Shown here in pieces: positions 3,384-43,612 of a stretch of DNA of 44,032 nt. The DNA is from a virus (lineage: Duplodnaviria; Caudoviricetes). Below the pieces are notes generated by a model. It did no database searches and was not told the DNA's origin. It saw only the letters and a program-made list of their open reading frames with translations. The stretch spans positions 1-44,032 of IMG/VR virus record IMGVR_UViG_3300020045_004669, one strand, 5' to 3'. The stretch's first letter is position 1. Each line of letters begins with the position of its first letter. Made by a program: the position numbers and the translations under genes.

Positions 3384-4172
3384 ATGGAATTAAACAAAAT
3401 TTATTGTGAAAATAACCTCGAAACAATGGCTAAAATGCCTGACAATTTTATTGACTTAACGGTAACTTCTCCGCCATACGATAATTTACGAGATTACAAA
3501 GGGTATTCTTTTCCATTTGAGGAAATTGCAAAAGAACTATTCAGAGTTACGAAAGTTGGTGGAGTTATAGTTTGGATTGTTGGAGATTCAACTGTAAAAG
3601 GTAGCGAAAGTGGAACTTCATTTAAACAGGCTCTCTACTTTATGTCAATCGGATTTAATTTACACGACACAATGATTTATGAGAAAAATTCAAGTGCTTA
3701 TCCTGCTAGCAGAAAAGGAAACCGATACACTCAAATCTTTGAGTATATGTTTGTTTTTAGTAAAGGTTCTCCAAAATGCAATCTGCTCTGTGATAAAGTT
3801 AATAAATGGGCAGGTTTTACTAATTGGGGGAATAATACACAGTACAATTCTGCTGGAGAATTAATAATAACGAATAATATAAAACCTGTTCCTGAATTTT
3901 CACCCCGAAATAATATTTGGAAATTTACAGTTGGTTTTAATGATAAGACGGGACACCCTGCCGTATTCCCCGAACAATTGGCAAACGACCATATATTAAG
4001 TTGGTCAAATGAAAACGATTTGGTTTACGACCCTTTTATGGGTTCTGGAACAACTGCTAAAATGGCAATTTTGAATAACAGAAATTGGATTGGCTCTGAA
4101 ATGTCAGAAGAATATGTAGAATTAGCGAATAAAAGATTATTCCAATATTTAAAACAACAAACATTATTTTGA
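3384..4172 (+). CDS. Beta-class N4-C/N6-A DNA methyltransferase
   Basis: TSPPY catalytic motif, HPAVFP, DPFMGSGTT SAM-binding motif. Confidence 0.92.
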   Translation: MELNKIYCENNLETMAKMPDNFIDLTVTSPPYDNLRDYKGYSFPFEEIAKELFRVTKVGGVIVWIVGDSTVKGSESGTSFKQALYFMSIGFNLHDTMIYEKNSSAYPASRKGNRYTQIFEYMFVFSKGSPKCNLLCDKVNKWAGFTNWGNNTQYNSAGELIITNNIKPVPEFSPRNNIWKFTVGFNDKTGHPAVFPEQLANDHILSWSNENDLVYDPFMGSGTTAKMAILNNRNWIGSEMSEEYVELANKRLFQYLKQQTLF

Positions 4173-5995: not shown

Positions 5996-6183
5996 CATTC
6001 AAACTTCTATCGGAGATGAAACATTCCGAGTTCACTTGCGAAACCGTTCAGGAAATGATAGACGAACTTACTAGACTAGAGAAAGAAAACAGCCCACAGA
6101 CTTATATTTGTGTAGAAAAAAGCACAGGAAGGTCAATTGTTGGGGGAGAATTAATGCTTGTAAAAAGAAATAAAAGGATATGA
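5989..6183 (+). CDS. Hypothetical protein
   Basis: ORF overlapping both neighbours in the operon. Confidence 0.6.
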   Translation: MLTFKLLSEMKHSEFTCETVQEMIDELTRLEKENSPQTYICVEKSTGRSIVGGELMLVKRNKRI

Positions 6184-6854
6184 TAAAAATTAGCGAAACA
6201 GAATACTTTTCAAACGATGGTACAATCAGATTCTTAAATATGGATTGCAATGATTTTATGAAAGGTTGCAAAGATAATAAGTTTGATTTGATAATAAATG
6301 ATAGTCCTTATGGTATCTCTGTAAACATGAATGCTGGCAGAAAACAAGATACAAAATCAAAAAAAAGAACCGTAAAAAAGTGGGATAACGAAACACCAAA
6401 CGAGGAGCATTTTTTAGAGTGCTTTCGCATTTCAAAAAATCAAATTTTTTGGGGTGCAAATCATTTAATTGATAAAATAAAAAAGCCTTCATCTGGTTGG
6501 ATATTTTGGGATAAATGTGTTGCTGCAGGTTGCTCTTTTTCGGATGGGGAGTTAGCTTGGACTTCATTTAATCAATCACTTAAAAAAGCGGTTATTGCCT
6601 GGAGTGGATTTATAGGGCAGGAAGGTGAAAAATTCCATCCGACAACAAAACCGATTAAATTATACCGTTGGATACTTCAAAACTACACCAAGCCAACCGA
6701 CACAATACTTGATTGTTTTGGCGGCAGTATGAGTAATTCAATAGCCTGTCACATGGAGCGCAGAAAGCTAACTATAATCGAGTTGGATAAGGATTATTTT
6801 GATAAGGCATTGAACCGTTTTTCAATTTATGAGCAACAAATGAAATTATTCTAA
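6180..6854 (+). CDS. Beta-class DNA methyltransferase with a variant catalytic motif
   Basis: DSPY where DPPY is expected, HPTTKP, DCFGGSMS; paralogous to 42938-43612. Confidence 0.85.
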   Translation: MIKISETEYFSNDGTIRFLNMDCNDFMKGCKDNKFDLIINDSPYGISVNMNAGRKQDTKSKKRTVKKWDNETPNEEHFLECFRISKNQIFWGANHLIDKIKKPSSGWIFWDKCVAAGCSFSDGELAWTSFNQSLKKAVIAWSGFIGQEGEKFHPTTKPIKLYRWILQNYTKPTDTILDCFGGSMSNSIACHMERRKLTIIELDKDYFDKALNRFSIYEQQMKLF

Positions 6855-6855
6855 A

Positions 6856-7010
6856 ATGACTACACCAGCAAAAAAAAAGCTTGTCATTGCAAACATTGCA
6901 AGGCTAGTAAAGCGAACAAAAGCACTAAGCTAAAGAGAATTATTAAACGATATTTAAACAAACAACGCAGGACAAAAACAGACTGCTATAAAACATTTTA
7001 TTGGGCATGA
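6856..7010 (+). other. Small frameshifted ORF (Cys/His motif in the -1 frame)
   Basis: ATG 6856, A9G tract at 6870-6879; -1 frame reads ACHCKHCK... and ends in an ATGA overlap with the next gene. Confidence 0.45.
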
Positions 7011-7282
7011 CAACAAAAGAAATAACACAGCGAAACTATATCGCAACGGTAAGGCGTGGACAAATTACAGCCGAAACAACAGCAAAACAATTCATTCAAA
7101 AGCTACAAGAAGAGCTAAAAGAGCTTATTGATTCACTTTCTGATGATGTAACAGCTCCATTCGATATTAAAGAACTTGCGGATATTAGCTTAGTTTGCGA
7201 CAGAGCTATGGGCATGGTTATTCTCCTGCCCATAGTAAGTATTATGTTTTCGTGCTTTATTATCTTTAAATCAATTATTTAA
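7007..7282 (+). CDS. MazG-like NTP pyrophosphohydrolase fragment, C-terminus probably replaced
   Basis: KLQEELKEL...KELADI resembles the MazG EE..E / E..D motif; the tail runs through an attC-like hairpin. Confidence 0.45.
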   Translation: MTTKEITQRNYIATVRRGQITAETTAKQFIQKLQEELKELIDSLSDDVTAPFDIKELADISLVCDRAMGMVILLPIVSIMFSCFIIFKSII

Positions 7283-7301
7283 ACAATTAAAATACAATCA
7301 A

Positions 7302-7589
7302 ATGGAAGTAAATTTCAACAATCTTAGAAAAAAAACTTGTGTTGCTTTTGACAGGCTTACAAGTAAATTAAATAACGAGTTAAAAAGTTATGAAAAAGAA
7401 TATGGCGACAAAGGATTTATATTAATTCATGTTGACGATATTCAAAAGGAAATGGACGAATTAAAGCAGCTTATTGGCTCGATTGCGATGTGCTATAATC
7501 CGAATGACGAAGATATGAAGGATGTCTTTGAAGAATTATATCCCGATGATAAATCAATGTTTGACTTTAATCCCGATGCTGATGAGTAG
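7302..7589 (+). CDS. Hypothetical acidic protein in cassette 1
   Basis: 95-aa ORF bounded by complementary cassette ends. Confidence 0.7.
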   Translation: MEVNFNNLRKKTCVAFDRLTSKLNNELKSYEKEYGDKGFILIHVDDIQKEMDELKQLIGSIAMCYNPNDEDMKDVFEELYPDDKSMFDFNPDADE

Positions 7590-7610
7590 TGCGATTTTTC
7601 TTAGCATGAA

Positions 7611-7743
7611 ACATAACGTCCGAGTGTATGCTTTGTAGCGGATTGCGGAGCGCAGATTTGTCGACAGACAAATCAAGCCGCAAGCGGGCGAAAAAGCTAT
7701 ACTAACGCACAAATAGGCTATAGAGCATACACGTGTGTTGGCC
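7611..7743 (+). mobile_element. attC-like recombination site
   Basis: ACATAAC ... GTTGGCC ends, 16-bp imperfect inverted repeat 7624-7639/7717-7732, nested inner hairpins; 133 bp; GC-richer than its surroundings. Confidence 0.6.
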
Positions 7744-7785
7744 GTTCGTTGTTTTCTTGATTATTAACTTTGAACAATAAATATC

Positions 7786-7959
7786 ATGGATTTAGTATTT
7801 GTAAATGATTGCGCCGTTGACGGATGTGGTAAAAAGAACATGGGAAAAGGCAAACAAATGTGTAAAGAACATCAAGCCAAATATGAAGCTGGTGAAAAAC
7901 TAACGGCTTTTTATGGTAAAACTGTACAGAAAAAAAAATTTCAAAATAAAAAATTATGA
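7786..7959 (+). CDS. 57-aa putative Zn-binding protein in cassette 2 (not in ORF track)
   Basis: CAVDGC...MCKEH; ATGA overlap with the next ORF. Confidence 0.6.
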   Translation: MDLVFVNDCAVDGCGKKNMGKGKQMCKEHQAKYEAGEKLTAFYGKTVQKKKFQNKKL

Positions 7960-8237
7960 CACAACAAGAAATTGAAGAAGAAAAAGCAGTAAGAATCTGC
8001 TATGATAACTTGGATAAATTCACAGATATTTATCCAACAGATAAAAATGCAGACGGAACATATTGGGAAAACAAAATTCCCGAAAATGTAAAGTTGACCG
8101 TATTTTGTCAAGGTTCAAACGACGAAGGCTTTCTTATAAATGTTACTTCGGACGAACTTGGATTAGAAGCATTAATCGCTCAAAAATGGATTATCCATTC
8201 AGAACTCGAAACGCTCTCTGGTTGCTCTTTGCAATGA
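7956..8237 (+). CDS. Hypothetical protein in cassette 2
   Basis: 93-aa ORF ending immediately before GACTAAC. Confidence 0.7.
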   Translation: MTQQEIEEEKAVRICYDNLDKFTDIYPTDKNADGTYWENKIPENVKLTVFCQGSNDEGFLINVTSDELGLEALIAQKWIIHSELETLSGCSLQ

Positions 8238-8474
8238 CGACTAACGACCTAATATGCACATAAAAAGTATTTCAAATCTATTAAAACACCAATGGTTCAG
8301 CACTCTATAAAAATATCAATTGATTGCAAAACTGCAATCAATTTCTTGAAAACAAAGCATATAAGTGCGGATAAGTATTTTAGATTGGGTGGGGAATCGT
8401 TGGTGATTGAAATTGCAAAAAAAAATATTTACATTGAAGAAAGTTAGATTACCATTTTAAAATAATAATACATA

Positions 8475-8948: not shown

Positions 8949-8979
8949 TTGGTTTGTGTTTACAATAACTATATCTTTG
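8949..8979 (+). promoter_or_regulatory. Bacteroidota consensus promoter
   Basis: TTG (8949-8951), 20 nt, TATCTTTG (8972-8979). Confidence 0.7.
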
Positions 8980-9412: not shown

Positions 9413-9562
9413 ATGGATTATTTAAAAGTAACCACAGATAATCTATTTAAAGCAATTGAATTTCAGAAAAATGGATATATAACTCCAAAGGCAGTGATTG
9501 AAAAGCTAACTAAATACGATTATTTATATGTTAATCCACCGTACAATGGCCAAACAAGATAA
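9413..9562 (+). CDS. 49-aa ORF containing an NPPY motif
   Basis: ...YITPKAVIEKLTKYDYLYVNPPYNGQTR. Confidence 0.5.
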   Translation: MDYLKVTTDNLFKAIEFQKNGYITPKAVIEKLTKYDYLYVNPPYNGQTR

Positions 9563-10264
9563 ACGCTTAGGGCTTACTAAGGCACTAGAAAAGCTAACCG
9601 GGAAACAGAATATAAATCAAGTGTTTGATGACTTCTTAAAGATGACCGTATGCGCTTATTCCCTCGGAAAAATGGAGCCTGAATACGAGCAAATCATTAA
9701 ACGGTACGATAAAGACGAACTCCCACCTTTCGGATCTGCACTTGGTGAGTTAATTTTGGAACACGAACGCACAAATACTCAATCTGCTTGGGTTGATGTT
9801 GTAGGTACAACTTTTGAAGAGGTCAATTCAGCTTCCGCGGCTTCGAGAATGGGTCAATTTTTTACACCAGTAGCATTATGCCGATTGATGGCACAAATCA
9901 CACAGGACGGCTTAAATGAAGGCAGCGTAAACGATCCAACGTGTGGAAGTAGTCGAAATTTAGTGGCCACGCACAACTAAACCCAAATAATAGGTTTAAC
10001 TTTTGGTATGTCGGTTCAGATTTAGACGAAAGATGTGTAAATATGTCAGTGATTAACTTTCTAATGTTTGGAATGAAAGGCGTAATTATTCACATGGACG
10101 CTTTAAGAATGGAAATTTTCAAAGGCTACCGTATTTATTTACCAGAAACAGGGCTTGGAGTTATTCAACTCACTAAACAAGAATGCCATAAGTATTTATT
10201 TGCAGAAAGTGAAAAAGAAAATGTGATAGTGATTAAACAACCAGTACAGCAAAGTTTATTCTAA
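9546..10264 (+). pseudogene. N6-adenine methyltransferase-like gene (HsdM-type SAM-binding half), frameshifted near 9970
   Basis: GQFFTP and DPTCGSSR in ORF 9528-9980; the -1 frame continues HAQLNPNNRFNFWYVGSDLDERCVNMSVIN into ORF 10043-10264. Confidence 0.75.
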
Positions 10265-14747: not shown

Positions 14748-14838
14748 ATGGAGTTAGCAAAGTTGGTTAAGTGCGACGTGAGGCATACTTGAAATAAGGT
14801 TGCTACGGGTGACAATGGTTCGAATCCATTACTTCATA
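14748..14838 (+). ncRNA. tRNA-like RNA with a non-canonical elongated anticodon arm
   Basis: 7-bp acceptor ATGGAGT/ACTTCAT, D-arm GCAA-AGTTGGTTAA-GTGC, T-arm AATGG-TTCGAAT-CCATT; no standard anticodon loop, no encoded CCA. Confidence 0.75.
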
Positions 14839-42937: not shown

Positions 42938-43612
42938 ATGATAAAAATAGATAGCTTTGAATTTCATAACGCAGACAACATGCAGATAATGAAACAATAC
43001 CCAGATAAGTATTTTGATTTAGCTATTGTTGACCCGCCTTACGGAATAAATATAACAAAAAATAAAAGGTTAAATAATAATTCAAAAAACGATTGGGATT
43101 CAGAAATTCCAAACAAAGAATATTTTAATGAATTATTTCGTATTTCAAAAAATCAAATTATTTGGGGCGGAAACTATTTTATTGAGCATTTAAAAAATAG
43201 TCGCTGTTTTATAAATTGGGATAAATTAAATCATTCTGATACTTATGCAGACTGCGAAATGGCTTGGACTTCATTTGATAAAAATGCTAAAATTTTTAAA
43301 TATATGTGGGATGGTAATAGATATGGATATGAAGGAAATATAAAAGGAGTTGGAAAACCTACAATAAGATTTCACCCAACTCAAAAACCAATAGAATTAT
43401 ATGATTTTTGTATTATAAACTATGCTAAACAAGGCGATAAAATCATCGACACACATTTAGGCAGTGGCTCAATAGCTTTAGCAATCGACAAAGCAAATAA
43501 ACTCGACAATATGAATTTAGAGTTTGTCGGGATTGAGTTGGACGCGGAATACTTCAATGCTGCATTAAATCGGTTTAAATTAGCACATTCACAAACAACA
43601 ATTTTTGACTAA
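42938..43612 (+). CDS. Beta-class N6-A/N4-C DNA methyltransferase
   Basis: VDPPYG, HPTQKP, DTHLGSGS. Confidence 0.92.
   Translation: MIKIDSFEFHNADNMQIMKQYPDKYFDLAIVDPPYGINITKNKRLNNNSKNDWDSEIPNKEYFNELFRISKNQIIWGGNYFIEHLKNSRCFINWDKLNHSDTYADCEMAWTSFDKNAKIFKYMWDGNRYGYEGNIKGVGKPTIRFHPTQKPIELYDFCIINYAKQGDKIIDTHLGSGSIALAIDKANKLDNMNLEFVGIELDAEYFNAALNRFKLAHSQTTIFD

Follow-up and report, generated by a model that had tools for sequence, protein, structure and literature searches.

We report a locus on a 44,032-nucleotide phage contig (IMG/VR record IMGVR_UViG_3300020045_004669, the whole of which is called the window below) that is probably a two-cassette, partly decayed integron-like array, belonging to a system shared by Bacteroidota and phages and with units that an IntI-related tyrosine recombinase without the IntI-specific segment is likely to have placed. 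By our own hairpin detector and by eye, the array contains one intact and one decayed site, and the genes of both cassettes occur as cassettes in other arrays.

The array on the phage contig

The contig carries a tailed-phage gene set (terminase, portal, capsid, tape measure, DnaB and endolysin), and the host is likely a member of the Bacteroidota. A PF00589 scan found no tyrosine recombinase at an E-value of 10, and tblastn with five phage recombinases as queries returned nothing below E 0.6. The first-pass annotation's description of a phage with no integrase is borne out for the contig, a record classed as linear and 53% complete, and a recombinase may be encoded elsewhere in the genome. 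The contig encodes an Erf-like annealing protein and is mosaic outside the array. Comparison of 7190-8300 by blastn with 50,697 phage records gave three chance matches only. The early region is duplicated on the contig (1583-4597 and 40789-44032), with blocks that are 86-95% identical alternating with different genes, namely the replication-initiator N-terminus, a methyltransferase and an extra 121-aa open reading frame (ORF); the contig may be a junction of two related phages, or longer than one genome length. DNA methyltransferases are encoded by three genes (3384-4172, 6180-6854 and 42938-43612), and a short ORF at 9528-9980 weakly matches a methyltransferase. There is also a tRNA-like Rfam match on the plus strand between genes of the lysis region (14748-14838). 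The TAnnTTTG box, which we take to be the Bacteroidota -7 motif, occurs at 8972 with TTTG upstream of it and a promoter-like appearance, and also at 7765 in the leader of cassette 2; there are 7 such boxes in 4.5 kb.

The intact attC-type site occupies 7611-7743, and its plus strand is the G·T-rich, bottom-equivalent strand. It consists of AAC (7615-7617), a 6-nt spacer, a 16-bp stem formed by inner arms at 7624-7639 and 7717-7732, an apical hairpin (7655-7674), and a 4-nt spacer before GTT (7737-7739). All of the sequence strings quoted in the first-pass annotation are present where it placed them. The 16-bp inverted repeat that it described can be assigned to the inner arms, but only 14 of the pairs are Watson-Crick, the other 2 being G·T on the plus strand. 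Integron cores follow the consensus RYYYAAC and GTTRRRY, and the cores of the intact site match this at 6 of 7 bases, with AAC and GTT present. The inner stem is unbulged with a 6/4 loop, and the extrahelical bases and near-even spacer of classical attC are absent. The site is 133 nt long with 49% G+C, compared with ∼33% for the whole window, and folds as DNA with z-scores of -2.67 on the plus strand and -2.13 on the minus strand, and as RNA (plus strand) with a z-score of -3.96. It is the sole hairpin in the window at a detector score of 12.5, a level reached by none in shuffled loci (409 kb). A close homologue, flanked on both sides by different genes, is found in phage locus L009, and both partners of one apical pair are altered in it.

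To the left of the intact site lies cassette 1, the body of which extends from 7241 to 7617 between complementary end arms (7241-7256 and 7603-7617). The claim that these ends are near reverse complements holds well, with an arm score of 10.5 out of 12, which 7241 alone reaches among 5631 NTT sites on the plus strand. In L450, the arms are as in cassette 1, with one change that is found on both sides. The single gene (7302-7589, plus strand) encodes a 95-aa protein of no assigned function, with no significant match in PHROG or Pfam. Metagenome searches found 16 loci with this gene, of which the weak L464 and L465 (29-32% identity) were left out; of the remaining 14, 5 have both arms, 2 combine a single arm with a hairpin, and 7 lack cassette arms altogether. 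The gene is also without arms in L004, and across loci it is flanked by three different arm pairs.

Preceding cassette 1 is a decayed 48-nt site (7196-7243, plus strand), with TGC in place of AAC, a 6-nt spacer, a 10-bp stem, a 4-nt spacer, and ATT in place of GTT. It shares the 6/4 geometry of the intact site, and its length is that of the shortest class in the family. The first-pass annotation had noted a remnant hairpin at 7206-7235; the hairpin is present and folds at z -3.7, but we reread it as part of what is probably cassette 1's own attC, judging from the sequence. Perfect 9-bp repeats separated by loops of 8-40 are found 28 times in the window, so it is the position and geometry of the hairpin that argue for this. 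In L450, L451 and L459, GTT is found where the window has ATT, and a hairpin lies upstream of the homologous cassettes. The decayed site also overlaps the end of a gene at 7007-7282 (plus strand), presumably MazG-like or NTP-pyrophosphatase-like from its motif, whose product ceases to match its relatives after LVCD and reads on through the decayed site. One relative, P0002, has a weak PRA-PH Pfam match (E 0.025) and is 94% identical to the product up to LVCD, and its C-terminus beyond this point is common to all 8 homologues. We looked for this C-terminus after 8245 and saw no match among the matches listed, and a simple insertion of the array into the gene was accordingly rejected. Given that the decayed site starts where the MazG-like gene stops matching, and that the C-terminus was not found after the array, the simplest account would be a deletion through a shared CGAC microhomology that fused the decayed site to the gene.

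Cassette 2 (body 7737-8245, plus strand; end arms 7737-7751 and 8232-8245) is less clearly bounded. Its arm score is 7.5 out of 12, and because 10 of 871 AAC sites reach the same score, the arms are weak when taken alone; the proposed complementarity of the ends is nevertheless supported by homologues that end at the same position. Its first gene (7786-7959, plus strand) encodes a 57-aa protein of no assigned function that is 88% identical to the product of the first gene of a cassette in phage array L470, where the relative opens a two-gene cassette whose second gene differs. The second gene (7956-8237, plus strand) encodes a 93-aa protein, likewise with no assigned function, whose relatives are 71-81% identical. 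A GTT arm precedes the relatives of this gene in 11 of 11 viral loci, with a matching end arm in 10 of the 11, and the gene is found in nine different left contexts. Since the two genes occupy two different cassettes elsewhere, cassette 2 is a composite.

The array ends at 8243-8263 (plus strand) in an unfolded sequence at the attI position, composed of AAC, 6 nt and ATATGC. As an attI-like site it is a weak match, scoring 2.1 bits and ranking 10th of 1706 AAC sites; 16 of 18 cellular attI-like sites, each left out in turn, score 3.6-20.5 bits, all above the window's end. A rank of 2 out of 1706 for part of the attI motif was not relied on, because the sub-window had been picked after inspection. 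The first-pass annotation took the site after cassette 2 to be a truncated attC, but the sequence after 8243 shows no folding (z +0.86) and lies where attI would be expected. A 51-aa ORF (8292-8447, plus strand) starts 46 nt past the array end, where related phages begin their recombinase gene; we considered it as a recombinase remnant and rejected this, as none of the five phage recombinases gave a tblastn match there. Given that one of its sites is dead and that its attI-like end is weak, the array probably has little mobility at present.

The site family in phages and the polarity of its cassettes

Phage loci were gathered by pattern scans of IMG/VR, mostly with one 17-nt seed, and some of the loci overlap. 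Our detector permits no bulge in the stem and, together with the single seed motif, this biases the counts of site geometry. In 132 phage loci (409 kb) the detector found 310 sites, compared with 5 in shuffled sequence, and similar sites surround unrelated small genes. Pairing between the two ends of a cassette reaches at least 9 of 12 positions in 113 of 155 distinct co-oriented neighbours, but in only 1 of 153 controls, in which the two flanks of a single site were compared; 24 neighbours are opposed. The abundance of these sites and the self-complementary cassette ends uphold the original interpretation of attC-type sites in a cassette array. In 249 of 280 detections, one side of the loop exceeds the other by 2-4 nt, bulged stems being invisible to the detector. 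Free partner arms were counted both downstream (46 of 124) and upstream (35 of 109) of the sites, but hairpins missed by the detector swamped these figures, which served for inspection by eye only. By eye, site lengths in L001-L132 cluster near 47, 86, 124 and 190 nt, the first three spaced by ∼38-39 nt. Comparison of L010 with L064 shows a gene that is 90% identical between end arms that differ, each pairing over ∼25 bp with changes on both sides.

Three features indicate that the genes of phage cassettes lie on the strand equivalent to the attC bottom strand. First, the gene is on the strand that reads AAC-G in 105 of 114 phage cassettes. Second, wobble pairs of the inner stem favor G·T on that strand, with 245 G·T against 43 A·C in phages, and in the stem formed by the cassette ends, position 11 has its G·T on the AAC-G strand in 125 of 164 cassettes from phages and 78 of 98 from bacteria (positions 4-6 of this stem were forced by the filter). 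Third, phage arrays terminate in unfolded attI-like sequence on the gene strand. The bottom strand of the published attC of aadA7 likewise runs TAACG...ATTGTT (PMC9892861, Table S3). The G·T strand is the gene strand in phages and the opposite strand in bacteria, and therefore the wobble tracks the DNA site and not the mRNA. The polarity assumed in the first-pass annotation, with genes on the top strand, thus has to be reversed, and with it the cassette boundaries: in place of 7241-7736, the likely units are a hairpin with its downstream gene, which from our analysis would be 7198-7616 (419 bp) for cassette 1 and 7617-8244 (628 bp) for cassette 2.

Units of this form can be seen in comparisons of arrays. 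An AAC-bounded unit of hairpin plus downstream gene, 95.7% identical between the two, is first in the host array L403, at the attI-like site, and last in the phage array L056, and in the pairs L260/L262, L261/L268 and L265/L266 identity begins at AAC. In L403 (L403:5617-5834), the cassette shared with L056 is of the reversed phage type, has its start codon inside the hairpin, and heads an array in which the remaining genes have bacterial polarity. No relative lacking exactly one array unit was found in the viral and metagenome scans.

By analogy to classical integrons, the AAC-G strand would fold as single-stranded DNA, and the folded strand would be cut between AA and C and joined to a double-stranded attI-like site. 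A cut at this position of the folded strand would make the unit a hairpin plus its downstream gene, and would have the unit enter at the 3' end of a phage operon, where its reversed gene could be read from an upstream phage promoter. The recombinase would be supplied by the host or by a co-infecting phage.

Bacterial arrays and a candidate recombinase

A scan of GTDB gave 129 stretches, mostly from records titled as Bacteroidota. The 126 bacterial loci hold 215 sites, compared with 10 in shuffles, and among 61 bacterial neighbours the gene is opposite to the AAC-G strand in 49 and on it in 11. In ten genomes, one kind of tyrosine recombinase is encoded at the head of the array, with nine tandem and one divergent, and this recombinase was detected in 70 of 201 genomes sampled from the phylum Bacteroidota. 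We also surveyed loci starting from the recombinase, using 40 of 87 matches chosen on rank and length of contig. Hairpins are carried by 22 of the 40 loci, with none detected in the other 18, and all 40 hairpins direct the AAC-G strand at the recombinase gene (35 tandem, 5 divergent). By comparison, 20 control stretches located 100 kb away yielded 1 site in 261 kb. An unfolded motif, AAC-T-N5-WATA, is found ∼100 bp behind the recombinase gene.

All ten recombinases scanned with TIGR02249 score 158-209 bits, below the cut-off of 265. Between the KG.K.R and HxxRH motifs there are 53-61 residues in the recombinase and about 100 in VchIntIA, and relative to structure 2A3V the recombinase is ∼42 residues shorter where VchIntIA has an insertion. 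In a midpoint-rooted tree, which does not give the order of origin and in which the one integron integrase is a long-branched sequence of 300 aa, the recombinase family lies apart from XerC and XerD of Bacteroidota. By its sequence, the candidate enzyme is an IntI-related tyrosine recombinase without the IntI-specific segment, not a classical IntI.

Relatives of the recombinase are encoded in viruses as well, and 12 of 80 viral loci with such relatives contain sites. These lie upstream of the recombinase on the same strand in L310, L316, L318, L321, L327 and L329, and in at least 7 of the 17 viral loci inspected by eye, the recombinase start codon is directly preceded by the unfolded motif together with an arm and AAC. 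An array, an attI-like site and the recombinase occur together in L316, L318, L321 and the cultured Polaribacter phage Freya_10, where the order is hairpin, cassette, array end and a gene annotated as an integrase (L466:3791-4962). In Cellulophaga phage Ingeline_1 (L467), an arm and array end precede the recombinase, with no hairpin detected. The gene annotated as an integrase in these flavophages may be a cassette enzyme rather than a lysogeny integrase. The recombinase is also present, together with an array, on a Chryseobacterium plasmid (L469; NZ_CP041688), and plasmids of Acinetobacter and Klebsiella encode relatives that are 48-59% identical (matches H5, H6, H8 and H9).

Alternative readings and relation to known systems

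Exchange between arrays is not fully described by movement of whole units. Among 44 homologous cassette pairs, which are non-independent and about half of which belong to one family, neither hairpin is kept in 34, the upstream hairpin only in 7, the downstream only in 1, and both in 2. Furthermore, the upstream hairpin can differ between cassettes whose 97.6% identity begins at GTT, so that a single crossover point is insufficient. Either the other strand recombines too, or cassettes are rebuilt, or phage recombination reassorts the parts. One could suppose that the site family derives from this system, but that phage genes are now moved by phage recombination, through Erf-type annealing at the short, similar arms and hairpins, and not by a site-specific recombinase. 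Consistent with this are the hairpins swapped on both sides of near-identical cassettes, the Erf-like protein and mosaicism of the contig, the occurrence of the cassette 1 gene without arms, and the decay of both cores on the contig. Nevertheless, identity begins and ends at AAC or GTT triplets, arms change jointly on both sides, and several phages retain the recombinase right behind the array end, and we regard this explanation as unlikely.

The layout could also be read with canonical polarity, as the first-pass annotation did, such that each gene moves together with the hairpin that follows it, which makes the unit 7241-7736, or the stretch from 7737 on, and turns the final site into a truncated attC. 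AAC and GTT are present on both strands, making the layout readable either way, and the L011/L043 pair keeps the downstream hairpin only. However, the gene strand is identified as the bottom strand by its wobble, by the asymmetry of the loop and by the way the sites face the recombinase, and it is on this strand that the attI-like sequence ends phage arrays. In addition, pairs retaining only the upstream hairpin outnumber those retaining only the downstream one by 7 to 1, and the unit common to host and phage has its hairpin upstream, making canonical polarity a distinctly improbable reading.

A further possibility is that the hairpins are structured RNAs that lie among the small phage genes and serve in processing, as leaders or as terminators. 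The G·T excess in phages lies on the mRNA strand, the plus strand of the intact site folds best as RNA, and an ATG in A/T-rich context, with a frame open for at least 30 codons past GTT, is contained in 67 of 265 phage hairpins (a count made with no chance control). The first-pass annotation had named top-strand G-U pairs as the sign of such an RNA, and these are indeed present, but RNA is not favored by them, as in bacterial arrays it is the non-coding strand that carries the wobble (124 to 37, and 78 of 98 cassettes for position 11). Moreover, an Rfam scan gave no match at the intact site or at the sites in L001, L002 and L004, and sites are oriented toward a recombinase. We give this reading very little credence as the primary role, although hairpins may have a secondary RNA role in phages and may supply translation starts. 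A chance palindrome or REP/MITE-like repeat, suggested by cassette 2 arms and a 9-bp hairpin that are weak alone, can be set aside as scarcely credible given one intact copy in 44 kb with no dispersed near-identical repeats, hundreds of diverse homologues in ordered arrays, and paired ends specific to each cassette.

We return to an array that would work in the manner of an integron. Similar to classical integrons, and in particular to sedentary chromosomal ones with a tandem integrase gene, the system to which it belongs has AAC and GTT cores, fold-back sites of ∼47-195 nt, cassette ends that pair on circularization, an unfolded site beside a tyrosine recombinase gene, and strand-biased G·T. 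It differs in a recombinase that lacks ∼42 residues and falls below the TIGR02249 cut-off, in an unbulged inner stem with a loop 2-4 nt longer on one side, in cassette ends whose pairing spans ∼15 bp and includes a fixed G·T (position 11), and in phage genes that lie on the folded strand, with top-strand genes kept by 49 of 61 bacterial neighbours. On enzyme domain, site geometry and gene polarity, the array is outside of the classical family.

Several published observations touch on the same system. Qi et al. 2023 (PMC9892861) described phage CALINs, including that of Polaribacter phage P12002L with sites of divergent direction, and these resemble our arrays in that integrase-free phages carry cassettes together with attC-like sites. 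In the portion of that paper available to us, the sites are treated as classical attC and tested with IntI1, the divergent directions are left unexplained, and neither a Bacteroidota recombinase nor a rule of reversed genes is named. P12002L_attC1, which yielded no recombinants with IntI1 in the same available text, has by eye the 6/3 loop of the family and a one-base bulge and was missed by our detector, which found four more sites in P12002L; attC2, reported there to recombine, sits at an array end. In Riemerella anatipestifer, as described in the accessible part of PMC13148043, a gene is inserted together with 27 bp of DNA on its 5' side and 140 bp of folded DNA on its 3' side, and no flanking homology is involved. 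Compared by description, a gene with a short 5' arm and a folded 3' segment moving as one unit is what is predicted for bacterial polarity; the enzyme is not named in that part of the paper. CTXphi and XerCD (PMC4792948, as far as its available text goes) likewise use a folded single strand without extrahelical bases and an enzyme without the I2 domain, but there the whole phage integrates at dif via host XerCD, whereas our family comprises small gene units arrayed next to a dedicated recombinase, which forms a group distinct from the XerC and XerD of Bacteroidota. Phage CALINs are thus already published; in a literature search of titles and abstract openings, with subscription journals mostly outside its reach, we found no I2-less integron-like system in Bacteroidota and no reversed phage cassettes.

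The locus on the contig is itself a small, decaying example of a wider system. Complete integrons are reported to be nearly absent from Bacteroidetes in surveys for which the IntI domain is a prerequisite (PMC9024848), and yet the recombinase is present in over a third of the genomes that we sampled from the phylum, often heading an array. One unit is common to a phage array and a host array, and phages may therefore feed host integrons. The same phage gene is found with three arm pairs and with none, which offers a handle on how cassettes are made, and with cultured phages such as Freya_10 the system is testable. We tentatively suggest, as a possibility that we do not favor strongly, that Bacteroidota phages make cassettes anew from their own genes, in reversed orientation, that the I2-less recombinase cuts either strand, and that hairpins and gene bodies reassort as modules between phage arrays and host chromosomes. 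If true, the integron would survive here in a living pre-I2 form, offering a place to watch cassettes being created. The handling of folded sites without an I2 domain bears on the chicken-and-egg origin of integron integrases, and also touches the viral origin of integrons suggested in the available text of PMC4792948.
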